Shown: positions 401 to 16,296, counted from the first letter of the stretch. The stretch: DNA of 64,000 nucleotides from a bacterium (GCA_030698395.1 JAUYKW010000018.1:44726-108725); one strand, 5' to 3'. The notes: a model not told the origin generated them from the sequence alone. A program made the numbers and translations.

Positions 401-1681
401 ATGACTAGCAAGGTAAAAAAACAATTAGCAACATTACCACAAAAGCCAGGAATTTATTTGTTTAAAAATTCTATTGGTAATGTACTTTATGTAGGTAAAG
501 CGAAGTCTTTAAGTAGCCGAGTTCGATCATACTTTAGACAGCATAATGATTTGAATGAAGCTAAACAAATTATGGTACGGCAAATTGTTGATGTAGATTG
601 GATAGAAACAAAAACTGAATCTGATGCCATAATTTTAGAAGATAAGTTGATCAAAGATTATCAACCTAGATTTAATGTATTAGCAAAGGATGATAAAAGT
701 TTTTTGTATATTCATATAACGGATGAGAAGTTTCCTCAGGTACTAGCAGTACGGAGACCAAATCTTCGTAAAGCTGGAATATTTTATGGACCATATCCAT
801 TTGCTCGTAGTATTAGAGAAGTTCTAAAATTATTACATAACATTTTTCCATATCGGACTTGTAAAAATTTACCAAAAAAGGCTTGTTTAGAATATTACAT
901 TTATAAATGTAAAGCACCGTGCATTAATAAGATTTCAGAATCAGATTATCAAGCATTGATATATGATGTGTTAGCTTTTTTTGAAGGTAGAAATACTTTA
1001 GAGCTAGAATCAAGATTGGAAGAAATGATGCAGGTAGCTTCTGAAGATAAAAAGTTCGAAGATGCAGCAAAGTATCGTGATCAGTTAAAAGCAATAAAAA
1101 AGCTGCGTTCATTTCAAAAAACTCCACGTGAGTATTTAACTGATTATTACCAATTTAAGGCTATCGATCCTGATTTAGGCCTTCAACAGCTACAGGATGC
1201 TCTGGTTTTGCCAGCTCAGCCAAAGAGGGTAGAAGTTTATGATATTTCAAATATCCAAGGAACATATGCGGTTGGATCGATGGTGGTGTTTATTGATGGA
1301 TTGCCAGCTAGGAGTGAATATCGGAGATTTAAAATTAAAACTGTCCAAGGTGCAGATGATTATAAAAGTTTGCAAGAAGTGGTTAGACGGCGATTAAAAA
1401 GAGATTGGCCAAAACCAGATTTAGCTATCATGGATGGAGGTAAGGGGCAATTAAATGCTGTAAAACATTTTTGGCAAGATCATGACGTATCAGTTGTTGC
1501 TTTAGCCAAGAAAAGAGAAGAGCTATTTCTACCTGATCAAGCGATACCAATTACAATGGAAGCTGGTAGTCAGGGATTATTTCTAATTCAAAGAATGCGT
1601 GATGAAGCGCATCGTTTTGCCATCACTTATTATCGTAAATTGCACTCTAAATCAATGCGAGCTAATACCACTAAAAGCTAG
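401..1681 (+). CDS. uvrC: Excinuclease ABC subunit C (UvrC), short form of 426 aa that lacks the C-terminal (HhH)2 domain
   Basis: It has an N-terminal GIY-YIG motif (GIYLFKN...LYVGKAKSLSSRVRSYF). A UVR motif follows (EDAAKYRDQLKAIKKL). The C-terminus is a UvrC RNase H-like endonuclease domain (VEVYDISNIQGTYAVGSMVVF...YRRFKIK). It sits divergent to uvrA. Confidence 0.85.
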   Translation: MTSKVKKQLATLPQKPGIYLFKNSIGNVLYVGKAKSLSSRVRSYFRQHNDLNEAKQIMVRQIVDVDWIETKTESDAIILEDKLIKDYQPRFNVLAKDDKSFLYIHITDEKFPQVLAVRRPNLRKAGIFYGPYPFARSIREVLKLLHNIFPYRTCKNLPKKACLEYYIYKCKAPCINKISESDYQALIYDVLAFFEGRNTLELESRLEEMMQVASEDKKFEDAAKYRDQLKAIKKLRSFQKTPREYLTDYYQFKAIDPDLGLQQLQDALVLPAQPKRVEVYDISNIQGTYAVGSMVVFIDGLPARSEYRRFKIKTVQGADDYKSLQEVVRRRLKRDWPKPDLAIMDGGKGQLNAVKHFWQDHDVSVVALAKKREELFLPDQAIPITMEAGSQGLFLIQRMRDEAHRFAITYYRKLHSKSMRANTTKS

Positions 1682-3083
1682 GGGGAGTAGCTGGTGGAGT
1701 ACCACTTGGTGTTGATGGAATTATTTCCGGAGAATTTGTTGGAGTAGGAGGAATTGGACCTGATGGGGGAATTCCCTGAGTAGGTGCTTGTGGTTGTTGT
1801 GGCAGTGTAGGTTCTAATATTTCAGGGGTAGTAGGAGGATTATCTTGAGTTGGTGGTATAGGTTGTTGAATTGTAGCTGTTTCATCAGCTAGAGTATTTG
1901 CAATCGATGGTTCAGCTTCGAAGGCTGGTGCCATTTCTAAGGAAGCTAAGTCGGTTGCATTAATACCGGTTTGGATTAGTTCAGCATCTGAAATATGAAT
2001 TGCATCTATACCAATTCCAATAACTATGCCATTTTTATCTTGAGAACGATATATTTTTGCATCCGAAGCTAACGAGGCGTTTAATTCTGGTTGTTCTAGA
2101 GTTTTTAATTTGTCTGTAATTGATGAGGGCTCAGTGGTGAGTGTAGATTTAACAGCTGGAGATTCAGTTTTTTGCGGTAGCATGTGCAAGTCTTCTGTTG
2201 TGATGTCAGCATCAGTTACTTCTGTCGGAGAAAAATGTACAGATCCAGTAGCATGTTCAATTAGTAATCCCATTTCGGGTGTGGCATATACTTGAGCACC
2301 GGAAACGACAGTGTTTGCAACTGCCGGATTAGTATCGGAGAATTTTTTATTAAGAATTTCTATAATTTGCTCTGGCGTTAATGACTCTCGCTCTTTCTCG
2401 AGTGGAGTAACAGGCGATTCGGGTGCTTCTTCAATTGGTGAAATAGCTGGTGTGTTCGAAGTTGCTGGAGGAATGGAACCAGATTTATCAATGGTAGGAG
2501 TTGGTTGTTCATCTGTTGAGTTGACTTCAACAGGATGAGGTTTAATAAATTCTAAATCTTTAAAGATGTCTTCACTTTTTTCTGGATCGGTTTTAATTTG
2601 TGTTCGAGCTTCTTGAATTTTCTTTATTTGGTTATTTAGTTTACCCTCATTACTTTCCATGAAGCCGGTTTGTTCAATGAGCTTCTTTAGTTTATCAATT
2701 AAGCCGGTTTGTTCAGAATTAATACTTTCTAATTCAGAGATTAGTTTTTCTTCTGCACTATCCAATTTAGCCAAATAATCGACAGTCGTATCGGATGGTA
2801 CATCTTGAAGGGGTATTACTTGTGGTTTTAGAGATTCTCCAGGATTTTCTACTGGTGTCGATGTTGTCATGGGTTCAGGAGATGTTGTATCAGATTCTGA
2901 AGTAGGTGTTACTGGATTAGTTGTAGCTGAAGCAGTATTCACAAAAGGAAGTGTGATAGCTGGTCCAGACGTTGGAGTAGTTGAATTATCGTTGGGTGTA
3001 CCCATTGGTTGAGGAGGTACTGGATTTGAGGTTGATTCATTCATAATTAATATAATAATAGCATTTTTTTTAAGAAAAATCAA
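1671..3083 (-). CDS. Hypothetical Pro/Thr/Ser-rich low-complexity protein with a central coiled coil and an N-terminal hydrophobic segment, possibly surface or secreted
   Basis: It is a 470-aa ORF. The N-terminus MIFLKKNAIIILIM is followed by long P/T/S-rich tracts (TPPATPPSF, PIPPTPTNSP). The middle has heptad-like segments (KLKKLIEQTGFMESNEGKLNNQIKKIQEARTQIK). I recognise no catalytic motif. Confidence 0.5.
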   Translation of the reverse strand: MIFLKKNAIIILIMNESTSNPVPPQPMGTPNDNSTTPTSGPAITLPFVNTASATTNPVTPTSESDTTSPEPMTTSTPVENPGESLKPQVIPLQDVPSDTTVDYLAKLDSAEEKLISELESINSEQTGLIDKLKKLIEQTGFMESNEGKLNNQIKKIQEARTQIKTDPEKSEDIFKDLEFIKPHPVEVNSTDEQPTPTIDKSGSIPPATSNTPAISPIEEAPESPVTPLEKERESLTPEQIIEILNKKFSDTNPAVANTVVSGAQVYATPEMGLLIEHATGSVHFSPTEVTDADITTEDLHMLPQKTESPAVKSTLTTEPSSITDKLKTLEQPELNASLASDAKIYRSQDKNGIVIGIGIDAIHISDAELIQTGINATDLASLEMAPAFEAEPSIANTLADETATIQQPIPPTQDNPPTTPEILEPTLPQQPQAPTQGIPPSGPIPPTPTNSPEIIPSTPSGTPPATPPSF

Positions 3084-3169: not shown

Positions 3170-5656
3170 TTAAACTGTAGCATTTGCATCAGGATGTTTA
3201 AGAGTTGGCAGTTCAGCTGATATTCTATCAACATTCTTTTCAGCTTCAGCATCTCTTGAGGCCTGAGCTATATCTCCGATTTTTCCAAAAGACATATATT
3301 CAGTAGGAAGTTCATCGTTTGCTACTGATTGCAGACCCTCTAAGGCTGTTTGGATATTTAACTGACCTGCATCTGCTAATGCCTCGGATAGTTGTGGTAA
3401 ATTGATATATTCAACCCCTGCATAATTACCTGGTTCGCCAGATAATATGTAAACACCCTGAGCATTTTGTGCAGTTGTGCCTTCTGGTAATCGAATATCA
3501 ATTAATCTTCCTTGTGCTGGCAAATCTACAAGCATGCGACGCAGATTGTCATTACTAGTTGCGAACTTTTTAGCTAAAGCATTTTTAATTTCGCTTACAT
3601 TATGTTCTCTCGTTTTTACTGCTTCAGTTTTTTCCGTTCCAGCTTCTGCATACGCTTTTTCTTCTGCTGCTTCAATCTGTTCAGACATGCGGGAATACTT
3701 ATTGTCTACACTTGGTGTTTGAACTGTTTCATTTCTGGCCGCTATGGAATCTTGAACGGATTTTGGTAAAGGTATACCAGATAAAGTAGCTTCTAGTTCC
3801 CAGGCATTTTCCATATTAGCATTTGCTTCATTACTAGCTTTTGTGGCTATTGATATTTTTTTATCAAGCGTAGCTAAAGCTTTGCGTAGTGCTCTGCCTT
3901 TTAGCGTTTCTGATTTTTCTAAGTTTGCTCTTTCAACAATTAAGTTACTTTCTATTTGTGAAGCTTTAATAAATGTGTTGGCAGCTTCCATAGATGCTTG
4001 AGATGCTTGTTCTATTGCTGCATTATCGGCATCTTCATTTGTTCTTGATAGTGTTTCAACGAGTTCTTGAGAGCCAGCAACATTGGCTTCAGCTTCTTTA
4101 ATACCAGCCTGAGTATCACGACTAATTTTTTCAAATAACTTGGCTCTTCCTTTTTCATCTGTTTTTCCTGCAAGGAAACGTTGATTTACTTCCCCAATCT
4201 TATCTGATCGTGCATCAAGTAAAGTTTTTAACTTCGCTTGTGCTTGTTCTAAACTTTGTTGAGCAGGCTCTAGAGCAGCGGATTTTTCTGCAGGCGTCAT
4301 TTGTTCCATTGGACGCATTGGTGTAATCATATCTTTAGCCAAAGCAGGGCTGTTTATTGTTACATCATATACGCTTTTGTCTGTTGTGAATCTAAAATCT
4401 TGTTTTTGTCTTGGCGAAAGTTTCGATGCACCTAGTGCTGTTTGTTCATATTCATCACGGAGTGCTCTCTGTTCATGTATATCCGATGGTGTTAGAGGAT
4501 TCATTGCCTCTCCATATTTAACTGGAGCTAGACCTTCTCCTTGTTTAAAAAATTCTTGTTCAACATCGTCACCAGCAAGTTCGCTAATGGCTTTTTCTGT
4601 TTGTTTATCTTCTACTTTTTGAATTTCAACTCCAAAATCACCTAAGTTAATAACTAGGCCACGAGCTCCATCAATTCTGCCATCATATTCTTCATTTATT
4701 TTTGCAATTGCCCGTTTAATCTCAGCGTCATTTAGTTTATCTGTATCAATTTCTGCAATTGCGATTGCCTTAGCATCCATAATTTGTTTGAGTTCTTCTT
4801 GAGCATTAGCAAGAGCTTTGGTTTTTTCTGCAGGTGTCATTTCTGGTTTATTAAAGTCCATGCGAGTTCTTGCTCCAGTACCGGATTCACCAACTTTTAT
4901 ACTATACGGGCTAGCTTGGCTTGATGTTGCAGTCTCTGTTCGTTGTAACTTAATACCACCACTAGCTGTGCGCATATAGAATTCATCTGCCATGTCATTG
5001 ACAATACTGGTCATGCCTGAATCTTGCATATGAGACATCTTCCACATGCTTTGGAATAACTTATTTTGATGTTCTGGGTCAGTAGAGGTTGCAATAGCTT
5101 CTCTTAATTTTCCTACAGCTTCTTGAATACGTTGTAGTTTAGTTTCTTGTCTGGTAAATAAACCAACACGTTCTGCTAGGCGTGTTACTTGAGCTCTTAG
5201 TACACTACGTTGCTCATCCATGGCTTCGTGTCGATTGCTAACAATCGTTTCTAATATTTTTAAGCTGTTAACCATGTGCTCTGCGCTAAGTAATCCTTCT
5301 GGTTTTTCAGCTGTAGCTTCTGCATCTTCATTAGGCAAATCTGAATAATCAACATCACTCATAGGTGTTTGGTAATTTCTAGCTTCAGGAATTCTATTAT
5401 AAGTTACCACTCCTTGGTCTTCTGGTTCTCCAATGTGTTGATCTAAATCTAACATTATGTCATCACTTGGGTCGTGGGAAATGTTTGGTAGTTGAGTTCT
5501 ATCTATTGGTGTTGTGGGGGCATTGTTATCTATATTGTCATCACCTGTATCTTCAAAACGTTCTGCGCCAGATAAAGGTAAGCCAGCATTATTTTCTATT
5601 TTTTTGGCTGGTAGATCTCTTTTATTTATTGGGTCTGTTCTTTCTCTTGCAACCAT
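3170..5656 (-). CDS. Large hypothetical coiled-coil protein of 828 aa with an acidic N-terminus
   Basis: It is a long uninterrupted ORF rich in A/E/K/Q with many heptad-like stretches (LEQAQAKLKTLLDARSDKIGE, AKAIAIAEIDTDKLNDAEIKRAIAKINEEYDGRIDG). It has no TM segments and I recognise no enzymatic motif. Confidence 0.5.
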   Translation of the reverse strand: MVARERTDPINKRDLPAKKIENNAGLPLSGAERFEDTGDDNIDNNAPTTPIDRTQLPNISHDPSDDIMLDLDQHIGEPEDQGVVTYNRIPEARNYQTPMSDVDYSDLPNEDAEATAEKPEGLLSAEHMVNSLKILETIVSNRHEAMDEQRSVLRAQVTRLAERVGLFTRQETKLQRIQEAVGKLREAIATSTDPEHQNKLFQSMWKMSHMQDSGMTSIVNDMADEFYMRTASGGIKLQRTETATSSQASPYSIKVGESGTGARTRMDFNKPEMTPAEKTKALANAQEELKQIMDAKAIAIAEIDTDKLNDAEIKRAIAKINEEYDGRIDGARGLVINLGDFGVEIQKVEDKQTEKAISELAGDDVEQEFFKQGEGLAPVKYGEAMNPLTPSDIHEQRALRDEYEQTALGASKLSPRQKQDFRFTTDKSVYDVTINSPALAKDMITPMRPMEQMTPAEKSAALEPAQQSLEQAQAKLKTLLDARSDKIGEVNQRFLAGKTDEKGRAKLFEKISRDTQAGIKEAEANVAGSQELVETLSRTNEDADNAAIEQASQASMEAANTFIKASQIESNLIVERANLEKSETLKGRALRKALATLDKKISIATKASNEANANMENAWELEATLSGIPLPKSVQDSIAARNETVQTPSVDNKYSRMSEQIEAAEEKAYAEAGTEKTEAVKTREHNVSEIKNALAKKFATSNDNLRRMLVDLPAQGRLIDIRLPEGTTAQNAQGVYILSGEPGNYAGVEYINLPQLSEALADAGQLNIQTALEGLQSVANDELPTEYMSFGKIGDIAQASRDAEAEKNVDRISAELPTLKHPDANATV

Positions 5657-5835: not shown

Positions 5836-5864
5836 TTGACAAATTGTAATATATCGGTGATAAT
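5836..5864 (+). promoter_or_regulatory. Sigma70-like promoter in front of the GC-rich island ORF
   Basis: TTGACA (5836..5841), a 17-nt spacer, then GATAAT (5859..5864). It lies in a very AT-rich intergenic region. The compositional shift to high GC begins a few nucleotides downstream, where a transcript would be expected to start. Confidence 0.5.
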
Positions 5865-6018
5865 GTTCTGTCCTCTTCGTTATGGAGGGGTCTGGTTCTT
5901 ACGGCACTCTATGTCGTTGGCGCCACGCTCTTTTTTACTAGACCGGTTTAGGATAATGCCCTATTCCAAATCGTCGTGCTTTTTCGACAAATCCTTAACT
6001 CACCACAAGGGAGATAAC

Positions 6019-6987
6019 ATGACTGCGCAAGTCATTCCTTTCCCTAGCGGTGGAAGCCGGTCAGGGAAACAAGATATCTATGCTGAGATTCGGCCAAGCC
6101 AATCTCGGCTACAACAACATCGTCAAACCACAATGCAGGTAATTACGGGGACTGAGTGGACGGAACAATACCTCCACCCCCAGAACGTACGCGTGGAGCT
6201 GCCCCAACGTGGGGATGCAGAGCTCTTCGTGACAGTACACGTTCACATCCCGGCAATTCGTGGCCGGCTCCAGATTGGAGCGCAGGCGCTTGAACCGGGT
6301 AGACGACCCAGTGGTTGGGTGATGGCACAGGTAGAGGTGAGCGATCTTCGGCACCACCTCGTGTATGGACCAAGATACAAGAAGGTTCAGTATACGGTGC
6401 GACATGCCTTGGATGGCACTCACATGACCTTCCGGGTCAAGGTGGATCAATTCCCCTTCGGTCAGGCACAGGTGGTGCTTTGGTGGGTAGGCAAGAACGC
6501 CAACACCGATGGCATTTTCGTGCAGGCCAGGGAGATACCAGCTCTGACCTTGTCGACGAACGACCCTACAAGAACGATCACGCCTACGGGAGCGGTCGAT
6601 CGAACGGGAAAGGTCGTCGATAGCAACGTTGTAGTCGAGACCCACAGGTACGCATCCGGGTTTTTAACCGACTTCATCATCAACCTCCCGCACATGGATG
6701 GACAACAACATCCTGGTGTACCGCGGGTTCTCCCACGGCTGGACAAGGTGAACGTGCAAAAGGTGAACGTGCAAGACGGCACGTTGACGGTGATTGACCA
6801 ACTCACTGGCTCTGCCAAGGTGTACGACCATATCGTCTTTACGTGCGAGCGTTCAGACGAGGCTACACACCTCCGGTTCAGAGTCGAGGGGATGGACGCA
6901 ATTCCTGTCGGGTCCGAAGAGCTGGTCCTAGAATGGAGATCGACGTCTCTGGGTGGTTACTACATCCAGGTGATCGTTGATCGCTGA
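6019..6987 (+). CDS. Orphan hypothetical protein of 323 aa encoded on a compositionally foreign high-GC island
   Basis: The ATG at 6019 is preceded by AGGGAGA at 6008..6014, a strong Shine-Dalgarno sequence. The ORF track extends the frame back to a TTG at 5836, which overlaps the promoter hexamers, so the extension is unlikely to be real. The open frame runs 969 bp through DNA far more GC-rich than the rest of the window, and codon choice differs from the neighbours. It has no TM segments and I recognise no motif (no RT, DDE or HNH signature). It is followed by a hairpin at 7011..7031. Confidence 0.55.
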   Translation: MTAQVIPFPSGGSRSGKQDIYAEIRPSQSRLQQHRQTTMQVITGTEWTEQYLHPQNVRVELPQRGDAELFVTVHVHIPAIRGRLQIGAQALEPGRRPSGWVMAQVEVSDLRHHLVYGPRYKKVQYTVRHALDGTHMTFRVKVDQFPFGQAQVVLWWVGKNANTDGIFVQAREIPALTLSTNDPTRTITPTGAVDRTGKVVDSNVVVETHRYASGFLTDFIINLPHMDGQQHPGVPRVLPRLDKVNVQKVNVQDGTLTVIDQLTGSAKVYDHIVFTCERSDEATHLRFRVEGMDAIPVGSEELVLEWRSTSLGGYYIQVIVDR

Positions 6988-7166
6988 AATGTCCAGCATG
7001 GAAGTGAGAGGTACTGCGTACAACGCAGGACTTGAAACGTCGTCGCACATCAACTGCTGACTACCTCTCCATCTTCCCCTTAATCTTATAAATTATGTTT
7101 TAGACTTTTTTGTTTGTAAGTAACACAAAAGTTGAAAGCAGAATTTGTTTCTTTTAGAATCGCTAA

Positions 7167-8093
7167 CTAAGTTATTTTTAAGAGCATTACGAATTGCTCG
7201 AATGCAGAAAAATATTTCTTCGGACGTAATGTTGTATTTTGGTATTCCAACATTACTTCTATCATATAATCATCATGTGTAAACAGAACTACTCGTGATG
7301 GAGAGCTGGTTGTTGTTTCTAACATTAATCCATTTCGTTGGGAGATTTCTGGAATTGATTCAAGAATGTTAGCATTAATATATTCTGGTCTGTATTTTTT
7401 AATCCAATCAAGTGTTGTAACAGTGTCATTTTCTGCTAGTGATATTGTAAGGCTAGCACTTTCTCGATCCTTTGTTTGTAATTTTATTTTGTCTGGACCG
7501 ACTGTATTTACTTCAAAATAGTCTTCATACTCAATCGATAACTCTCCAGCATTAGTATTGAATTGTCTTTCTTGCATTGCTACCGGGTGAGTTATTTTTC
7601 CGTAGGATATATTTTCATCATATGCAGACACCATATTAATATGAGAGCTATATACAACAACTAATACCATAAAACCAATTACAACTAACGCGCAAGCGCT
7701 AAAGAAATGTTCGCCAAAACTTAACTTATTAATTTTAGATTTTTCTTCAATAGTTATTACAGGTGTTTCATTGTCACTCTCAATAGATTCAATGGGTGCA
7801 ACAGAATCGATACTTTCTATCGGTGAAATTGGTTCTAATTCTAATTTTTCAACTATGGACTGTTTTTCTGGAACTGGTTTTGATTTCTTTTGTACTTTTT
7901 TCTTAGCAACAGGTTTCTTAACAACAGTCTTTTTTGTAGTAATTTTTTTAGGTGCTTTTTTAACGGCAATGCTTTTCTTCTTTTTATTAGCTGTAACCTT
8001 TGTTACTTTAGTCGGGGCTTTGGCTTTATTCTCTTTTGCCTTGCTGACTTTAGTATTTTTTGGTTTGCTTATTTTTTTTGTTATTTTTGCCAT
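7167..8093 (-). CDS. Membrane protein with an N-terminal lysine-rich histone-H1-like tail, one TM helix and a C-terminal extracytoplasmic domain
   Basis: The N-terminal roughly 75 aa are MAKITKKISKPKNTKVSKAKENKAKAPTKV...KKAPKKITTKKTVVKKPVAKKKVQKKSKP (KAPKK and KKPVAKK repeats). A short PIESI repeat follows. There is one hydrophobic helix, FSACALVVIGFMVLVVVY, and then a roughly 170-aa non-repetitive domain. Confidence 0.6.
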   Translation of the reverse strand: MAKITKKISKPKNTKVSKAKENKAKAPTKVTKVTANKKKKSIAVKKAPKKITTKKTVVKKPVAKKKVQKKSKPVPEKQSIVEKLELEPISPIESIDSVAPIESIESDNETPVITIEEKSKINKLSFGEHFFSACALVVIGFMVLVVVYSSHINMVSAYDENISYGKITHPVAMQERQFNTNAGELSIEYEDYFEVNTVGPDKIKLQTKDRESASLTISLAENDTVTTLDWIKKYRPEYINANILESIPEISQRNGLMLETTTSSPSRVVLFTHDDYMIEVMLEYQNTTLRPKKYFSAFEQFVMLLKIT

Positions 8094-8138
8094 GGTTTAA
8101 TATTATATTCCTCCAAATAAAAATATATTATAGCGAAG

Positions 8139-10208
8139 CTACATTTTTTCTACAAGTTTTTCTGGAATATCTGCAATAAATCTAGAAGCACTTACAATTT
8201 TTGTAGTACCAAACACAGTTCGCTGATTAGCATAAATAAGATATGCTCGTTCACGGGCGCGGGTTAATGCCACATAGCATAGACGACGCTCTTCCTCCAT
8301 TTCTAGTGGTTGGAATAAACTTCTGGCATGTGGAAATAGCCCTTCTTCCATACCTGCAACGAATACGTTATTGAATTCTAAACCTTTAGCAGCGTGTACA
8401 GTCATCATAGTGACTGCATTGGTGCTTTCGTCAACATCATCTTGATCTGAAATGAGAGCAACTTCTTCTAAGAAAGAGTTGATGCCAGCTTGACCAGGTA
8501 AATGATCGAATTTTTTGGTAACTGATTTTAATTCTTCAATATTTTCTATGCGACGTTGATCTTCTGATAGCTTTGGTGAGAATTGATCAGTGTAGCCGGT
8601 TTTGTCTGCAATCATAGTTAGTAAATCAGACGGAGTTTTTTCTGGAGCTGCCGCAATAATTTCTTGCATGGTTTTTTGAAAATTTAAAAAAGCTAGCCTT
8701 TGCTTTTCTCTTAAGGGTGGTAATTTGGTTTCAGATAATTCAACAAAGGTTGCTTCATTATCTCTGCAGGCTTGTTCTATTTTTAGCCAGCTATTTCTGC
8801 CTAATGATCTGGCAGGTATATTATAAATTCGTTCTAAACTTACCCAGTCAGCCGGATTAGCTACTACTTTCATATAAGCGATGAAATCCTTAATTTCTTT
8901 GCGCTCGTAAAATTTAATACCACCGATTAAACGATAAGGGATATTGTATTTCATGAAAGTTTCTTCTAGAGCACGTGATTGAGCATTGGTTCTATATAAA
9001 ATCACATACTCAGCAAGGTTGATATCTCGTTTTTGCCTTTTAATAACTTCTTCTAGAGCTAGATCCACTTTGTAATCTTTGAAAGTTTGACTTTTCATAA
9101 TTTTATCCAAAATGGACTCATCGGCTTCTGCTATTTGAATAGGGGTATATGAAATATCGTCATTGTCTTTTGGTTCGTTATTGTCCGAAAAATCAAATAT
9201 CTCTCTGATAATGAATTCTCCTTCGAGTTGTTCGTTTTCTACCTCTTTTACGACAATTTTATGTCCCCTGTCATTATCCGTCCAAAGAACCTTTTCCTTT
9301 TGAGAGGTATTATATTTAATAACTTCGTTGGCTGCTTCTAAAATACGTTTGGTGGATCGATAATTTTGTTCTAGTAGCACAACAACTGCATCTGGGTAAT
9401 CATCTTCGAAGTCTAGAATATTTTGTAAATTAGCTCCTCGCCATGAGTAGATGGACTGAAAGTCATCTCCTACTACACAGATATTATGATGCTTATCAGC
9501 TAATTGGTGGACTAATGTATATTGAGCATGATTAGTATCTTGATACTCATCAACCAAGATGTATTTAAATGCTGCTTGGTATTTTTTTAATACTTCTGGA
9601 TGTTCCTGAAAAAGTTTTACTGTTAATTGAATCAAATCATCAAAATCAAGTGCATTATTTCGTTGTAATTCCCCTTGATATTTACTATAAACATGAGCAG
9701 CAGTTTTTTCGATAGTTTCACTTGCCTCAGCTTCGTATGCACTAACATCCTTTAAATCATTTTTTGCACTCGATATCATGTATTTAATTATTTTAGGTGC
9801 GATTACTTTAGTATCGTATCCTAAATCTTTCATACATTTTTTAATCAAGGAATCACTATCCGATGCATCGTAGATGACATAATTAGTATCGTATCCTAAG
9901 ATTTCAATTTCTCGTCTTAAAATTTGTACACAAATTGAATGGAATGTACCTACTACCGGTAATTTTTTTACTTTGCCTTTAAGTAACTTTTGTAAGCGAT
10001 CTTTAATTTCTCCAGCAGCTTTGTTTGTGAATGTTACTGCTAAAATATTCCATGGCTTAACATCTTCCGTTGCAATAATGTAAGCAATCCGATGAATTAA
10101 GGTTTTGGTTTTTCCAGAACCAGCTCCAGCTAAAATTAAAAGGGGTCCATTAGTTTGTTGGACCGCTTTGCGTTGTCTATCGTTTAGAGGGGCTAGTAAT
10201 ATATGCAT
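8139..10208 (-). CDS. pcrA: ATP-dependent DNA helicase of the UvrD/PcrA family (superfamily 1)
   Basis: The N-terminus is LNDRQRKAVQQTNGPLLILAGAGSGKTKTLIHRIAYII (Walker A, helicase motif I). Motif II is DEYQDTN. The C-terminus is UvrD-like (VTMMTVHAAKGLEFNNVFVAGMEEGLFPH). The start is most likely the Met at 10208 (MHILLAPLN). The ORF track extends it 13 codons upstream to 10247. Confidence 0.85.
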   Translation of the reverse strand: MHILLAPLNDRQRKAVQQTNGPLLILAGAGSGKTKTLIHRIAYIIATEDVKPWNILAVTFTNKAAGEIKDRLQKLLKGKVKKLPVVGTFHSICVQILRREIEILGYDTNYVIYDASDSDSLIKKCMKDLGYDTKVIAPKIIKYMISSAKNDLKDVSAYEAEASETIEKTAAHVYSKYQGELQRNNALDFDDLIQLTVKLFQEHPEVLKKYQAAFKYILVDEYQDTNHAQYTLVHQLADKHHNICVVGDDFQSIYSWRGANLQNILDFEDDYPDAVVVLLEQNYRSTKRILEAANEVIKYNTSQKEKVLWTDNDRGHKIVVKEVENEQLEGEFIIREIFDFSDNNEPKDNDDISYTPIQIAEADESILDKIMKSQTFKDYKVDLALEEVIKRQKRDINLAEYVILYRTNAQSRALEETFMKYNIPYRLIGGIKFYERKEIKDFIAYMKVVANPADWVSLERIYNIPARSLGRNSWLKIEQACRDNEATFVELSETKLPPLREKQRLAFLNFQKTMQEIIAAAPEKTPSDLLTMIADKTGYTDQFSPKLSEDQRRIENIEELKSVTKKFDHLPGQAGINSFLEEVALISDQDDVDESTNAVTMMTVHAAKGLEFNNVFVAGMEEGLFPHARSLFQPLEMEEERRLCYVALTRARERAYLIYANQRTVFGTTKIVSASRFIADIPEKLVEKM

Positions 10209-10305
10209 AGCGGATGATAGAATACCACATTTTTTGCAGTGATACAATTTTTCTATATTTTACTAAATTTGTAACCAAGTTGTATTTTTGTGGTAACATT
10301 ATTCT

Positions 10306-11223
10306 ATGCAAGACTTTATAATAAAAACTTCAACCGGAGACGAAATTGAGGTTTATGCTGAACAGTTAGTTAAAAAAAGCAATCAAGGAACAATCGTTGC
10401 CGGTAAACATTTAGGAACCAATGAAGATGTGGTAGTAAAAATATCTCATCCTTTTTCTTTGATTAATGATACAGATCATACAGCTGGTGATAAGACTCAT
10501 GTATTAAGAGAATTAGAGATTTTACCACAGCTGTCTGGAGTTGATGGTATTCCAAAATTCATCGCATCTCATAAGCTGGTTGAGCCAGGAAAAAATGAAC
10601 GATATATTTTTGCAATGTCAAAAGTTAATGGGATTGATTTTGAAGAACGGCGGAAGCAAGATACGGAGCGAAGATTAACATGTGCGGAGGCGACAGATTT
10701 ATTAAAGCAAGTTGGATTAATTTTACAGCAAGCACATGAGCGGGATATTATTCATCGTGATTTAAAATTGAGTAACTTTATGATTTCACCGGATGGTAAG
10801 ATTTCGATAGTGGATTGGGGTACAGCTAAACATATTAGTCAGCCAAAAGATTCTTTTAGCGGTAGTACGCCAGATCATACTGTTATAGGAACGGTGCAAT
10901 TTGTTTCTTACGAACAGATAACTGGTCAGAAGCTAGATCAACGAACAGACATTTATTCACTTGGAGCAGTTACAGCATTGTTACGTTATGGGCCAAAAAT
11001 TAGTCAACGTTACGTGATTGATGAACAAGGTACGGTAACACAGCGCGAGAAAGGAAAGATAGCGAAAGCAGTTGCCGCTCGCGAAACTTTAAAATATGAA
11101 CTGTTTCCTAAGCCTGAAGATGACTGTGAACGTACTTTGCAGGCTGTACTTAAAAAAATGACAGATCCGGATAAGGAGAAGCGTTTTCAGTCAATGAGAG
11201 CAATGATTGAGGCAATTTCTTGA
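10306..11223 (+). CDS. Eukaryotic-like (Hanks-type) Ser/Thr protein kinase, cytoplasmic, 305 aa
   Basis: It has a VAIK-like lysine (VVVKISHP), the catalytic loop IIHRDLKLSNFMI, a DWG (DFG-like) motif in SIVDWGTAKH, and an APE-like region. It has no TM helix or PASTA domains. Confidence 0.8.
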   Translation: MQDFIIKTSTGDEIEVYAEQLVKKSNQGTIVAGKHLGTNEDVVVKISHPFSLINDTDHTAGDKTHVLRELEILPQLSGVDGIPKFIASHKLVEPGKNERYIFAMSKVNGIDFEERRKQDTERRLTCAEATDLLKQVGLILQQAHERDIIHRDLKLSNFMISPDGKISIVDWGTAKHISQPKDSFSGSTPDHTVIGTVQFVSYEQITGQKLDQRTDIYSLGAVTALLRYGPKISQRYVIDEQGTVTQREKGKIAKAVAARETLKYELFPKPEDDCERTLQAVLKKMTDPDKEKRFQSMRAMIEAIS

Positions 11224-11538: not shown

Positions 11539-13308
11539 ATGCCAAATAAGAATCGACGAGAGCGGGCAAGCCGACTTGTTGTGGGAGTATCTAAAAAGAA
11601 GATGCCTTCACTAGGACAGCTCCGCTACATTAATAATTTATTATCAGGTAAAGAAAGAATAATCATTGGATTGAGTTTTTTATTTTTTTTCCTGTCTATT
11701 ATTTTTATTGGGTCTTATCGTTATTTATCAACTACAGAAGTGCAACCAAAGATTGGTGGAGAATACATAGAAGCAGTGGTTGGACATCCGCAATATATTA
11801 ATCCAGTATTATCACAGACCAATGACGTTGATTTGGATATTTCTAAATTATTGTATTCTGGATTATTTATTCGGACCAAGGTTCAGCGTCTAGAACCTGA
11901 TTTAGTGAGCGATTATGAAATTTCAGAAGATCAACTAACATATACATTTTATTTACGAAGAGATGCATATTGGCATGATGGTGAGGCGTTAACTGCTAAT
12001 GACGTAATTTTTACAATACAATCAATTCAAGATCCAAATTATCAGAGTCCTTTAGAACCAAGTTTGCGTGGTGTAGAGGTAGTTAAAGTTGATGACTATA
12101 CATTAACTTTAACATTGAAAGAACCATTTGCTCCTTTCTTATCTAGCTTAACATTCGGTATTTTGCCGGAACATATTTGGTTTAATGCCTATAAAGGATC
12201 GGTACAAAATATTACATTGTCAGAATATAATGTGAAACCTATTGGATCCGGACCCTTCGTGTTTGATAAATTAGTAAAAGATAGTGCTGGAGTACTAAAA
12301 TCTTATACAGTAGTGCCATTTGAAAAATATTATGGAAAACATCCATATCTAGAAAGCGTTACTTTTGTTTTTACACCAGACTTAATAAGTGCTACAGAGT
12401 TATTGCGTCGGAAGGAAGTTGATGCTGTAGCTTTTATCTCACCAGATCAAAAGTTAGAGCTACAAAAACAACATAAACAATTACAATATTACAATTTGAA
12501 ATTGCCTCAGTATACAGCCTTATTTTTTAATCAGGAACATTCCGATATATTAGCTAGAGATGAGGTAAGACAAGCAATTGTGTGGGGTGTAGATCGTGAT
12601 TCAATGATAGAACAGGCATTGCAAGGAGATGGAGAGCCAATTTTCACACCAATTTTAAAAGGGTACATTGGACATAATGATGATATTGAAAAATATGGCT
12701 TTGATATTGCTAAGGGAATAGAAATATTGGAAGAAGGTGGCTGGATACTGGAGGATGGTACTGAATTTAGAACTCGTAAGGACGAAACTTTAGAATTTGG
12801 AATTGCTACGGTGAATCAAGATGAATTCTTAAAAACTTTAGAGATTTTAAAAGAGAATTGGACAAAAATGGGCATAAAGGTTACTGTAGATGTGTATGAG
12901 CCGGAGGATATTCATGAGCAAATCATAAAGCCACGTAAATACGAAGCATTACTATTTGGAGAGATTGTTGGTGTTGATCCAGATCCATACGCATTCTGGC
13001 ATTCAACTCAAATGGAGCATCCTGGGTTAGCATTATCTATTTTTTATCAAAAAAATATTGATGATTTGCTAGAAACTGCACGTAAAGAAAGTGATGAAGA
13101 AGAACGACGATTAAAATACTTACATTTCCAGAATATTTTAGCTGAAGAGTTACCGGCAATTTTCCTTTATAATCCATACTATACTTATGCAATCCATCGA
13201 GATGTGCAGGGTGTAGATCCACAATATATTACTACTCCGGCTGATAGATTTGCTGATATATCCAACTGGTATAGAAAAACTGAACGGGTAAAGAATACGG
13301 ACTCCTAA
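11539..13308 (+). CDS. ABC transporter substrate-binding protein, family 5 (oligopeptide/dipeptide/nickel type), TM-anchored
   Basis: It has an N-terminal signal-anchor helix (IIIGLSFLFFFLSIIFIGSY). Its length and sequence are typical of SBP_bac_5 (GGEYIEAVVGHPQYINPVL...KLLYSGLF...DGEALTANDVIFT). Confidence 0.75.
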   Translation: MPNKNRRERASRLVVGVSKKKMPSLGQLRYINNLLSGKERIIIGLSFLFFFLSIIFIGSYRYLSTTEVQPKIGGEYIEAVVGHPQYINPVLSQTNDVDLDISKLLYSGLFIRTKVQRLEPDLVSDYEISEDQLTYTFYLRRDAYWHDGEALTANDVIFTIQSIQDPNYQSPLEPSLRGVEVVKVDDYTLTLTLKEPFAPFLSSLTFGILPEHIWFNAYKGSVQNITLSEYNVKPIGSGPFVFDKLVKDSAGVLKSYTVVPFEKYYGKHPYLESVTFVFTPDLISATELLRRKEVDAVAFISPDQKLELQKQHKQLQYYNLKLPQYTALFFNQEHSDILARDEVRQAIVWGVDRDSMIEQALQGDGEPIFTPILKGYIGHNDDIEKYGFDIAKGIEILEEGGWILEDGTEFRTRKDETLEFGIATVNQDEFLKTLEILKENWTKMGIKVTVDVYEPEDIHEQIIKPRKYEALLFGEIVGVDPDPYAFWHSTQMEHPGLALSIFYQKNIDDLLETARKESDEEERRLKYLHFQNILAEELPAIFLYNPYYTYAIHRDVQGVDPQYITTPADRFADISNWYRKTERVKNTDS

Positions 13309-13409
13309 TAAATATAAAATATAACTTTGATAGCAGAGGGACTTCGCTAATGTCTCTGCTGTCGTAATTAATAAAGTACTAACAAATAATTGTTAGTTTA
13401 AGAATAAAT

Positions 13410-15218
13410 ATGATAAAAAAATCAGACAAAACATACAGATCAAATGAAGCAGATACAAGGAAGCGAAAAGCGCGAACACTGCAAAGAACGGTAAGTAAAA
13501 GATCCGGTGGTAGAAAAACATTAAGTATTAATGGTTACCAAGGACCAACAAATAAACGTTCAAAATTACGTGTTGCCATTGTAGGTGGCGCAGAAGAAGT
13601 AGGAAGAAACATGACCATGGTTGAATACGGTAATGATATCGTATTGATTGATTGTGGTTTACAGTTTCCAGAAGAAGATCAACCGGGTATTGATTACATC
13701 ATCCCAAATGTTTCTTATCTAAAGGGACGAGAAAAAGATGTAAAGGGTATTATAATTACTCACGGTCATTATGATCACATTGGTGGTATTCCACATATTT
13801 CACCAGTTCTTCACCATCCTCCAATTTATGGTACGAAATTAACTAATGGAATAATTAACAAGCGTCAGGATGATTTTCCTGATAAGGGTAAATTAGATTT
13901 ACGGGAAATTGATCCTGAGAAATCTATTCAACTTGGTATTTTTAACATCGAATTTTTTCGAGTGAATCATAACATCCCTGATTGCGTTGGTATTATTGTA
14001 CATACACCCGAAGGTACATTAGTTCATACTGGAGATTTTAAATTTGACCTTCAACCAATCATGGATGAAGTTACTGATTTTGCAAAGATTGCAAATATTG
14101 GTAAGCAAGGTGTATTAGCTTTGTTGTCCGATTCTACAAATGCTCCTTCACCAGGACATCAGTTATCTGAAAGTAAAATTGGCTTAACACTTGATGAAAT
14201 ATTTAGTAAGTCTACTGGACGAATTATAGTTGGAACATTTGCTTCGTTGTTAAATCGTTTACAGCAAGTAATCTGGATTTCTGAAAAATACGGTCGTAAA
14301 GTAGTTGTAGAAGGATATAGCATGAAGAGTAATATTGAAATATCTCATAAGTTGGGATATTTGAAAGTTAATCCAAAAACATTAATTTCACCAAAAGAAG
14401 CTTTGAAGTTACCAGATGATAAGGTAACTATCATGTGTACTGGTGCTCAAGGAGAGAGTAATGCTGCTTTGATGCGGATTGCAAATCGTGAGCATAGATT
14501 TTTCAAGATTGCTCAAGGAGATACAATAATCTTTTCTTCTTCAGTTATTCCTGGAAACGAAAGAACAGTACAGCGATTGAAAGATACTCTTTTAAAGGAA
14601 GGTGCACATGTAATTCATTATGAAATGATGGATGTTCATGCTGGTGGTCATGCTAAAGCTGAAGATTTGAAATTACTATTCAGATTGTTAAATCCAAAAT
14701 ACATTATCCCTGTGGAAGGAAATAGATTCTTATTAGAAGCTTCAAAAGGTATAGCGAAAGAGTTGGGTTGGACAGATGAGACCGCCTTAGTAACAACTAA
14801 CGGACAAATCATTCAATTTTCTGGTGGCGAAGGTAAGTTACTGAAAGAAAAAATTCCAACTGATTATGTAATGGTTGATGGATTAGGTGTTGGAGATGTA
14901 CAAGAAATTGTATTACGTGATCGACAGTTAATGAGTGAGGACGGAATGTTTGTGATTATCGTTACTATTAAGAAACAAACTGGAGAATTAATCGGTAGTC
15001 CAGATATTATTTCTCGTGGTTTCGTGTACATGAAAGATGCAAAGCATTTAATTGAGGATGCTCGTAGTCAAGTAAAGAAAATATGTGCTAAGAATAATCC
15101 AGAGAATGCATCAAATCCTATGTGGTTGAAGAATAAGTTGCGAGATGATATGGGTCAGTTCTTATTTCAAAGAATTCAAAGACGACCAATGATTCTGCCA
15201 GTTGTGGTAGAAGTTTAA
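13410..15218 (+). CDS. rnj: Ribonuclease J (metallo-beta-lactamase / beta-CASP RNase)
   Basis: Motifs: LRVAIVGGAEEVGRNMTMVEYGNDIVLIDCG; HxHxDH motif ITHGHYDHIGG; beta-CASP and C-terminal domains of RNase J. A basic N-terminal extension is present. Confidence 0.9.
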   Translation: MIKKSDKTYRSNEADTRKRKARTLQRTVSKRSGGRKTLSINGYQGPTNKRSKLRVAIVGGAEEVGRNMTMVEYGNDIVLIDCGLQFPEEDQPGIDYIIPNVSYLKGREKDVKGIIITHGHYDHIGGIPHISPVLHHPPIYGTKLTNGIINKRQDDFPDKGKLDLREIDPEKSIQLGIFNIEFFRVNHNIPDCVGIIVHTPEGTLVHTGDFKFDLQPIMDEVTDFAKIANIGKQGVLALLSDSTNAPSPGHQLSESKIGLTLDEIFSKSTGRIIVGTFASLLNRLQQVIWISEKYGRKVVVEGYSMKSNIEISHKLGYLKVNPKTLISPKEALKLPDDKVTIMCTGAQGESNAALMRIANREHRFFKIAQGDTIIFSSSVIPGNERTVQRLKDTLLKEGAHVIHYEMMDVHAGGHAKAEDLKLLFRLLNPKYIIPVEGNRFLLEASKGIAKELGWTDETALVTTNGQIIQFSGGEGKLLKEKIPTDYVMVDGLGVGDVQEIVLRDRQLMSEDGMFVIIVTIKKQTGELIGSPDIISRGFVYMKDAKHLIEDARSQVKKICAKNNPENASNPMWLKNKLRDDMGQFLFQRIQRRPMILPVVVEV

Positions 15219-15260
15219 GATCCTTTCCTGTCTGTAAAAATGTAGGGTCAGTATTTGAAA

Positions 15261-15299
15261 AGTAGAAACGTAGCATGCTACGTTTCTACTTTTTTATTT
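15261..15299 (+). terminator. Rho-independent terminator after rnj
   Basis: Stem AGTAGAAACGTAGC, loop ATG, stem GCTACGTTTCTACT (15261..15290), followed by TTTTTATTT. Confidence 0.8.
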
Positions 15300-15300
15300 A

Positions 15301-15309
15301 TGCTATAAT
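15301..15309 (+). promoter_or_regulatory. Extended -10 element (TGnTATAAT) directly in front of trpS, suggesting a leaderless transcript
   Basis: TGCTATAAT at 15301..15309, and the trpS ATG is at 15316. Only 6 nt separate the -10 from the ATG and there is no room for a Shine-Dalgarno sequence. Confidence 0.45.
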
Positions 15310-15315
15310 ACAAAT

Positions 15316-16296
15316 ATGAAAAAACGTATATTATCAGGAGTACAACCAACTGGAGCATTACATTTAGGTAATTATATTGGTGCTTTAAGACAATGGGTTG
15401 ATCTACAGCATGAAACAGATGCATATTTTTGTATCGTTGATTATCATGCTATTACCGTGAAACAGGATACTCAGGAATTGTATGATAATATTCATTCATT
15501 AGCAGCCATGTATGTGGCAGTAGGTTTAGATCCATCAAAAGTTACTTTATTCAAGCAATCTGATGTGTCGGCTCATACTGAGTTGGCATGGATTTTGAAT
15601 AATTTCACTCACATGGGAGAGCTACAGCGTATGACGCAGTATAAGGATAAAGCAAAGGGAAACGGTAAACAAACTGTTGGCCTGTTTACATATCCAGTAT
15701 TAATGGCAGCAGATATTTTGTTGTACCAACCGCACATGGTTCCAGTGGGTGAAGATCAAAAGCAACATGTTGAATTGACTAGGAATATAGCTCAGAGATT
15801 TAATAATAGATTTAGCGAAACTTTTCGTGTACCAGATGTAATGCATCCAAAAGACGGAGCAAGAATTATGAGTTTGGATGATCCTAATACCAAGATGAGC
15901 AAAACGGGATCTTCTCAGTGGGGATACATTGCTCTAAGTGATGCTCCAGATGTAGTGATGAAAAAAATTAAGAAGGCAGTAACTGATTCAGGTAGTACGA
16001 TAGAAGCATCTGCTGATAAACCAGCATTAACAAATTTATTAGTTATATATTCAGCAGTTTCCGGAAAAACAGTTGGTGAGTTAGAAGAATTGTATCATGG
16101 TCAGGGTTATGGAAAATTTAAGAAAGAATTAGGTGAAGCTATAGTTACTTGGTTAGAGCCGATTCAAGAACGATATCACGAGTTAATACAGAATTATGAT
16201 GAGTTACAGGCAATTCTTAAACAAGGTCAGGAACGAGCCTCAGTTGTAGCGCAGGTCACCTTGGATGATGTAAAAACAAAGATCGGAGTTATTTAG
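15316..16296 (+). CDS. trpS: Tryptophan--tRNA ligase
   Basis: Motifs: ILSGVQPTGALHLGNYIGAL (HIGH-type motif); KMSKTGS (KMSKS motif). Its 326-aa length is typical of class I TrpRS. Confidence 0.9.
   Translation: MKKRILSGVQPTGALHLGNYIGALRQWVDLQHETDAYFCIVDYHAITVKQDTQELYDNIHSLAAMYVAVGLDPSKVTLFKQSDVSAHTELAWILNNFTHMGELQRMTQYKDKAKGNGKQTVGLFTYPVLMAADILLYQPHMVPVGEDQKQHVELTRNIAQRFNNRFSETFRVPDVMHPKDGARIMSLDDPNTKMSKTGSSQWGYIALSDAPDVVMKKIKKAVTDSGSTIEASADKPALTNLLVIYSAVSGKTVGELEELYHGQGYGKFKKELGEAIVTWLEPIQERYHELIQNYDELQAILKQGQERASVVAQVTLDDVKTKIGVI

Follow-up and report, generated by a model that had tools for sequence, protein, structure and literature searches.

Of the systems described so far, the one closest in its probable way of working to the protein considered here is that of the membrane-anchored nucleoid-associated proteins, exemplified by Rv3852 of Mycobacterium tuberculosis, for which DNA binding has been shown experimentally (PMC8233713). 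In Rv3852 a basic cytoplasmic N-terminal region, credited with the DNA binding, is combined with a single transmembrane (TM) anchor located at the C-terminus; there is no outer domain, and proteins of this type are restricted to mycobacteria, within the Actinobacteria. A second group is that of the soluble H1-like proteins, where the histone H1 C-tails, Hc2 and the N-terminal domain of DdbA are all disordered polycations of 60–130 residues, rich in K, A, P and T and free of aromatic residues. In Hc2 there are pentamer repeats, which can also be recognised as repeats at the DNA level (PMC2848022), while in the Streptomyces protein DdbA the H1-like N-terminal domain is fused to another functional module (PMC3643593). 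Two further comparisons concern architecture more than composition: the regulators ToxR and CadC have a cytoplasmic N-terminal DNA-binding part (a folded, sequence-specific winged helix), one TM segment and an outer sensor-like domain, while TolA and TonB are single-pass inner-membrane proteins in which a long K-/P-rich low-complexity segment follows an N-terminal TM segment, and so is periplasmic, and a small globular domain forms the C-terminus.

The protein analysed here, which will be called X, has something in common with each of these. It shares with Rv3852 a basic N-terminal region to which DNA binding may be attributed, and a single TM anchor, the region being placed in the cytoplasm purely through the positive-inside rule; however, the TM helix of X is central, it is followed by a 160-residue ectodomain, and the protein comes from the Candidate Phyla Radiation (CPR), so that it would not be classed as a protein of the Rv3852 type. 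Its tail resembles the H1-like polycations in composition, but it is membrane-bound, and it has none of the repeat structure of Hc2. The topological logic is that of ToxR and CadC (the DNA-binding part being putative in X), whereas there is no winged helix: residues 1–125 of X contain no Pfam or NCBIfam domain, Trans_reg_C included, and are disordered in the AlphaFold model. Finally, in contrast to TolA and TonB, the low-complexity segment of X lies before the TM helix and would be cytoplasmic. In the literature and domain libraries searched there was no description of a protein in which an H1-like tail is linked through a TM helix to a PsbP-like ectodomain, nor was a paper found on the X family or on lysine-rich tails in Patescibacteria.

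Sequence, predicted structure and topology of X

Gene X occupies 7167..8093 on the minus strand of the stretch of DNA analysed (the window, which comprises the 64,000 nucleotides of GCA_030698395.1 JAUYKW010000018.1:44726-108725), and was defined from the list of open reading frames (ORFs) together with its homologue family. It begins with ATG and encodes a bitopic membrane protein of 308 residues, entered in the NCBI metagenome-assembled genome (MAG) as locus Q8P90_03270, ‘hypothetical protein’. The start codon can be regarded as sound, since no other start codon lies between an in-frame TAA and the ATG at 8093, there is a GGAGG 16 nt upstream, and the resulting N-terminus, M-[PEA]-E-[GE]-K-K, is common to the homologues. 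Searches with X gave no meaningful Pfam, NCBIfam or PDB sequence match.

A sequence-only reading of this DNA had picked out an N-terminal stretch of roughly 75 residues rich in K, A, P, T and V, a short PIESI repeat and a single TM helix, and all of these features are readily recognised. Residues 1–78 (7860..8093, minus strand) form the polycationic tail, with 39.7% K, 11.5% V, 10.3% A, 10.3% T and 7.7% P, a net charge of +29, and neither arginine nor any aromatic residue. Against a background of 7.7% K, calculated from window ORFs of at least 200 residues, the probability of finding 31 or more lysines in 78 residues is 4e-15. When all window ORFs are compared by their best 50-residue segment, X reaches 44% K+R, the next ORF 34%, and the others at most 26%; no other ORF of the window thus has a comparable lysine-rich segment. 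Second in this ranking is the N-terminal part of a 602-residue ORF at 13410–15218 on the plus strand, which comes after the gene at 11539–13308, whose slot, following SecG, is that of an SBP_bac_5 gene in related loci. A repeat scan of the DNA encoding the tail of X revealed just two micro-repeats of about two copies each, implying that the tail is not a recent expansion by tandem repetition or slippage.

Next comes a linker (residues 79–125; 7719..7859, minus strand), which is acidic (net –7) and contains the two PIESI repeats, SPIESIDS (90–97) and APIESIES (99–106), encoded at nt 7776–7826, as well as the nearly invariant Pro100. The sole hydrophobic segment of the protein, with a mean Kyte-Doolittle hydropathy of 2.7, corresponds to residues 130–148 (7650..7706, minus strand), and hydropathy, the AlphaFold model and the family alignment all identify it as a single TM helix. 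A possible signal-peptidase site immediately after this helix (‘VSA|Y’) was considered and rejected, as it is not conserved in the family and an n-region of 129 residues is not signal-peptide-like; for these reasons the helix is treated as a signal anchor. The remainder (residues 149–308; 7170..7649, minus strand) has a net charge of –8 and would be extracytoplasmic. The sequence-only reading had put this outer part at roughly 170 residues; a domain is indeed present, while the size needs correcting to 160 residues, of which 170–308 are folded in the model.

The structure of X was predicted using AlphaFold2 with an alignment of 23 sequences. The pLDDT is below 50 for residues 1–120 (i.e. disordered), about 90 for a single long helix spanning residues 126–161, and above 90 for a compact alpha/beta domain made up of residues 170–308. 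The model of this ectodomain superposes significantly on several unrelated members of the Mog1p/PsbP-like fold, in which helices flank an antiparallel sheet and with which its sequence identity is only 6–12%. Relatives by fold include PsbP, Mog1, LpqN, Apa, MTC28, DcrB and the periplasmic type VI secretion (T6SS) immunity proteins Tsi3/TplEi, and those that have been solved are mostly extracytoplasmic modules binding proteins or lipids. In contrast, the Pfam family PsbP (PF01789) is not matched by X at E ≤ 1, and by only one of the 23 family members, at E = 0.059. The outer domain of X is thus predicted to belong to the Mog1/PsbP-like superfamily in the structural sense, but not to the Pfam PsbP family in the sense of sequence. 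None of the fold relatives just listed is known to have a polycationic cytoplasmic tail.

The topology can be judged from the distribution of charge. In all 23 members of the family, the net charge of the whole region on the N-terminal side of the TM helix is positive (+16 to +41) and that on the C-terminal side negative (–2 to –13), and if just the 15 residues flanking the helix are counted, there are more K and R on the N-terminal side in 21 of the 23. By the positive-inside rule, X would be a single-pass signal anchor protein of type II (N-in/C-out), and the fact that its fold relatives are mostly extracytoplasmic modules is consistent with an outer location for the C-terminal domain. Both lines of argument place the tail inside, in agreement with the cytoplasmic position on which the sequence-only reading had relied, and we regard this architecture and topology as very probable. 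It should be added that the charge goes well beyond what topology would call for: the net charge preceding the TM segment lies between –4 and +9 in the other membrane proteins of the window, as compared to +21 overall, and +29 in the tail, for X.

If the topology were inverted, as the sequence-only reading had offered as an alternative, the K-rich tail would lie outside the cell, binding anionic wall polymers, and the Mog1-like domain would be cytoplasmic. Some proteins of the Mog1/PsbP fold are indeed cytoplasmic (Mog1 itself, and chaperones of the PA0094/EagR type), but such an arrangement would violate the positive-inside rule by 20–40 charges in every member of the family, the tail is not preceded by a signal peptide, and the C-terminal domain lacks the motif by which proteins interact with the PcrA helicase. 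Given also the mostly extracytoplasmic fold relatives, this arrangement, and with it the idea of cell-wall polymer binding, is very unlikely. The motif just mentioned, [VIL]DxxTGE[VIL][VILT], forms a beta-hairpin in RpoB and UvrB that is recognised by the Tudor domain of PcrA (PMC8318588). A regular-expression search for its strict form found it in none of the 23 members; some have a T-x-A-G-E-L-T or ‘AGE[LI]T’ hairpin in the outer domain, in which the Glu varies (E/H/R/P/K/N/Q). A role for X as a Tudor-motif partner of PcrA was rejected on these grounds, namely that there is no strict match, that the Glu is variable and that the hairpin belongs to the outer domain.

The X family and its genomic setting

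Homologues of X are not easily found. A word-indexed search returned just the identical protein, while an exhaustive phmmer search using residues 120–308 as the query against 1.84 billion cluster representatives yielded 14 true relatives (247–327 residues; E-values 1e-15 to 4e-4) along with one spurious repeat protein. A profile search added eight more, one of which is annotated as Candidatus Kerfeldbacteria, giving a family of 23 members (X and about 22 distant homologues, at 18–26% identity), all of them nameless and in singleton or near-singleton clusters. On this evidence the family is very small and appears restricted to one uncultivated lineage of ultra-small groundwater bacteria, the host of the window being a Kerfeldbacteria-like CPR bacterium.

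The plan of X is retained in all 23 members: a basic N-terminal region of 40–130 residues, a linker, one TM helix (which aligns throughout the family) and an acidic C-terminal domain of about 150–170 residues. When the tails are pooled, their composition is 26% K, 12% T, 9% P, 9% A, 9% V, 8% S and 8% R, with less than 1% aromatic and few acidic residues. Their sequences cannot be aligned between homologues, though the charge is kept, and the basic tail is present also in members from contigs of 42–47% GC. In members from higher-GC contigs lysine is partly replaced by arginine, as in P0011 (8 K, 12 R) and P0014 (14 K, 15 R), with the net charge retained. That charge should persist where sequence does not points to selection acting on the polyelectrolyte rather than to drift. 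A linker of 35–50 residues often separates tail from TM helix, and in 19 of the 23 members it contains a motif of the form hydrophobic-P-x-P-hydrophobic-x-hydrophobic, which in X is degenerate, retaining Pro100; a conserved juxtamembrane motif, [WF]-x-L-x-H, precedes the helix. When tail and linker are segmented in the same way for the whole family, the net charge of the linker is –8 in X, whereas the other members range from –4 to +7, so that an acidic linker is specific to the protein of the window.

The genomic setting was compared across eleven distinct loci (the window, with L001 representing the same organism, and L002, L003, L004, L005, L008, L009, L010, L011, L013 and L014); a scan of a genome collection using a subfamily alignment contributed three loci. 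Immediately upstream of X on the same strand lies a UvrD/PcrA-type SF1 helicase (pcrA, 702 residues; 8139..10247, minus strand; Pfam UvrD-helicase 1.8e-91, UvrD_C 2.4e-69), which shares 62–65% identity with its counterparts in the related loci. The helicase neighbour noticed in the sequence-only reading is therefore real, and it is also constant: in each of the nine loci that take in the upstream side, X comes after pcrA and is read in the same direction. In the window the helicase stop and the X start are separated by 45 nt (8094..8138, minus strand), within which there is a GGAGG at 8110–8114, and a promoter/terminator scan found nothing on the minus strand of this spacer. The spacer is 19–26 nt in seven other loci (in L013 counting from an internal Met that is the family-typical start) and about 98 nt in L008; L003 alone has an inserted ORF of 123 residues. 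A short, same-strand spacer without a terminator supports the view that X is probably co-transcribed with pcrA.

It must be remembered, though, that the gene order is shared well beyond this pair. X sits within a pcrA ... uvrC-uvrA block, the common order being SBP <- SecG <- ... pcrA -> X -> Y <- Z -> uvrC <- uvrA ->, and in the genomes compared collinearity extends all the way from RNase J to uvrA. Because of this collinearity, the adjacency to pcrA argues more for co-transcription than for a common function, and the proximity of X to DNA-repair genes may represent inherited gene order, not functional linkage. Between the window and the other loci PcrA and UvrC are 62–72% identical, whereas X reaches only 18–26%; X thus evolves rapidly, although its place in the gene order is conserved.

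Several other features of these loci may be recorded here. Divergent from the pcrA-X pair, at 10306–11223 on the plus strand, is a gene for a Hanks-type Ser/Thr kinase of 305 residues that has no TM segment; L010 and L014 show the same layout. The PcrA/UvrD orthologue is enlarged in L002 (6801–9974, 1057 residues) and in L005 (1–2613), and in L002 it has Hint and Intein_splicing Pfam matches corresponding to an inserted intein, which the 702-residue PcrA of the window lacks. In L010 uvrA (12606–15440) is split into parts of 400 and 539 residues, likely through a frameshift or an assembly error, while the other loci that hold the whole of uvrA have a single gene for 943–944 residues. Toxin-antitoxin pairs (BrnT/CopG, YafQ/RelB, PemK/PhdYeFM and HEPN/nucleotidyltransferase types) occur at varied sites in or beside the block: between SecG and pcrA in L002 (2977–4339) and L014 (3897–4485), beyond RNase J in L013 (342–1033), and never between pcrA and X. 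Two contigs, CAZSXL010000045.1 (L006/L004) and CAYMXY010000003.1 (L008), are titled ‘uncultured Gammaproteobacteria bacterium’, yet their gene order is of the CPR type and the UvrC of L004 shares 93% identity with the one encoded in a Candidatus Kerfeldbacteria MAG, so that these titles are probably due to mislabelling or mis-binning.

Directly 3′ of X, and convergent to it, is gene Y (5836..6987, plus strand; likely start 6019), which stands out by its base composition: 53.5% GC in a window of 35% GC, within an island extending from about 5950 to 7050 in which 200-nt windows reach 57.5%, and with a GC3 of 0.60 as compared to 0.23–0.25 for X and PcrA. An ORF of about 145–190 residues occupies the same position in nine of ten related loci (all but L008), and in the six loci measured the GC content of this slot exceeds the locus average by 8–19 points, so that Y, though it evolves fast, retains its unusual base composition in diverged AT-rich genomes; the copy in the window looks like a tandem duplication. 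There is no Pfam match for Y, a word-indexed homologue search returned just the protein itself, and a single-sequence AlphaFold model has a pLDDT of 36. The possibility that the island might encode a structured RNA was rejected, as there was no Rfam match at the gathering threshold or at E ≤ 1; there were likewise no tRNA or tmRNA genes, and the corresponding islands of distant loci showed no resemblance at the nucleotide level. On the other hand, the substitutions that separate two close loci follow a codon pattern (11/4/19 for the three codon positions) and the family alignment has an invariant L..W near the C-terminus, and given these findings together with the lack of an RNA match Y is treated as protein-coding.

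The other conserved neighbour is gene Z (1671..3083, minus strand), encoding a coiled-coil protein of 470 residues that is rich in P, T and Q and carries one or two repeats of the form ‘S.DGNGIVI...H.SDAELI...I....L’. Homologues of Z occupy the same slot in all related loci (BLASTP E-values 2e-27 to 9e-33), and its 3′ end overlaps that of the convergent uvrC (401–1681, plus strand) by 11–17 nt in the window, L002, L003 and L004. Beside Z, at 3170–5656 on the minus strand, the window has in addition a specific gene for a coiled-coil protein of 828 residues with a faint similarity to Z (E = 0.01); neither protein matches a Pfam family.

What the tail may bind

That the tail of X binds DNA or RNA is something we infer purely from its composition. 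A disordered, lysine-rich segment of about 80 residues could act as a clamp for polyanions irrespective of their sequence, and its likeliest ligand would be nucleic acid, in particular chromosomal DNA, by analogy with the C-tails of histone H1, with chlamydial Hc2 and with Rv3852. DNA is ranked first because the composition is of the H1 type, because the hydrophobic residues typical of lipid binders are lacking, because a linker often keeps the tail 35–50 residues away from the membrane, and because there are bacterial precedents. In that case X would keep DNA next to the membrane on its inner side, in physical connection with the ligand of the outer domain, the Mog1/PsbP-like fold being one that is used elsewhere in cell envelopes as a scaffold for binding proteins or other ligands; more speculatively, the tail of X might be modulated by its acidic PIESI linker, if this were to fold back onto it. 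The Pfam family HC2 (PF07382) is matched by the tails of four of the 23 homologues (best E = 1e-4) and not by that of X, these matches reflecting composition and being no evidence of homology. Taken in full, this reading, in which an N-in/C-out X is co-transcribed with pcrA and binds DNA through its tail, is tentative, and we would give it rather less than an even chance of being correct. A more elaborate version would make X a trans-envelope coupler specific to Kerfeldbacteria-like CPR, in which a membrane-bound, H1-like DNA clamp expressed from the pcrA transcript holds the chromosome, or incoming or damaged DNA, while the ectodomain senses or binds a ligand of the envelope or host; that version is improbable. 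Within it, the Hanks-type kinase might tune the tail in the way that phosphorylation tunes H1 tails (to propose the Thr/Ser-rich tail as a conceivable substrate of this neighbouring kinase is speculation), and the conserved neighbours Y and Z might be further components of the module.

Anionic lipids, RNA and polyphosphate would, of course, be just as good ligands for a coil of polylysine, and the principal alternatives to DNA binding turn on this point. The functional part of X might be its outer domain, acting for example in contacts of an episymbiont with envelope or host, with the tail lying on the anionic inner leaflet or forming an oversized topogenic anchor or spacer and no nucleic acid being involved. 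Anionic lipids are classic ligands of polybasic segments, the tail is tethered closely enough to touch the membrane, and the fold relatives of the outer domain are envelope binding proteins; moreover, X evolves fast, a pattern seen more often in proteins that are exposed at the surface or interact with a host than in the core machinery of the chromosome. What makes this picture unlikely on balance, though it must be taken seriously, is that net charges of +16 to +41 are far above those used for topology by the other membrane proteins of the window, that the tails are without the aromatic and hydrophobic residues usual in lipid-binding polybasic motifs, and that a linker of the length described above, acidic in the case of X, often parts tail from TM helix. 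A rather different possibility is that the tail binds RNA or ribosomes, in the manner of the basic C-tails of YidC/Oxa1-type insertases or of membrane-anchored ribosome binders, and so tethers translation or RNA turnover to the membrane. For lysine-rich disordered tails, rRNA is as good a ligand as DNA. In several loci RNase J lies in the same collinear block, and the lysine-rich disordered regions of snoRNPs offer a parallel (PMC11528048), but X contains no insertase or ribosome-associated domain and is coupled to pcrA and not to translation genes, and we consider a role of this kind decidedly improbable.

There is also the question of whether the tail has any function at all, since A-rich DNA in an AT-rich genome might, through AAA and AAG codons, give rise to a low-complexity lysine-rich segment of no significance. 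The GC content of the window (35%), the strongly A-rich coding strand of the tail and the impossibility of aligning the tails of different homologues are all as one would expect on that basis. However, no other ORF of the window has a comparable segment; a tail is found in every homologue, including those from contigs of 42–47% GC, with some of the K exchanged for R; the tails are poor in acidic and aromatic residues; the M-x-E-G-K-K start and the Pro-rich linker motif are conserved; and the DNA bears no signature of recent tandem repetition. An origin by drift is accordingly disfavoured and, in our view, highly improbable, and a tail not conserved among homologues, by which the sequence-only reading would have been refuted, is not what is seen: every homologue has one that is polycationic, aromatic-free and rich in T, P, A and V.

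Significance

The reach of these findings is limited, as they concern about two dozen sequences among billions, from one uncultivated lineage. Within the CPR almost nothing is known of chromosome organisation, DNA uptake or repair, and in such tiny cells membrane and nucleoid are in constant contact. If the tail of X does bind DNA, the protein would represent a simple and genetically compact tether between DNA and membrane in this group. Among bacteria it would, moreover, be one of the rare examples of a disordered, H1-type tail joined across the membrane to an outer binding domain, and would suggest that the outside of the cell can be coupled to the nucleoid without a folded DNA-binding domain.
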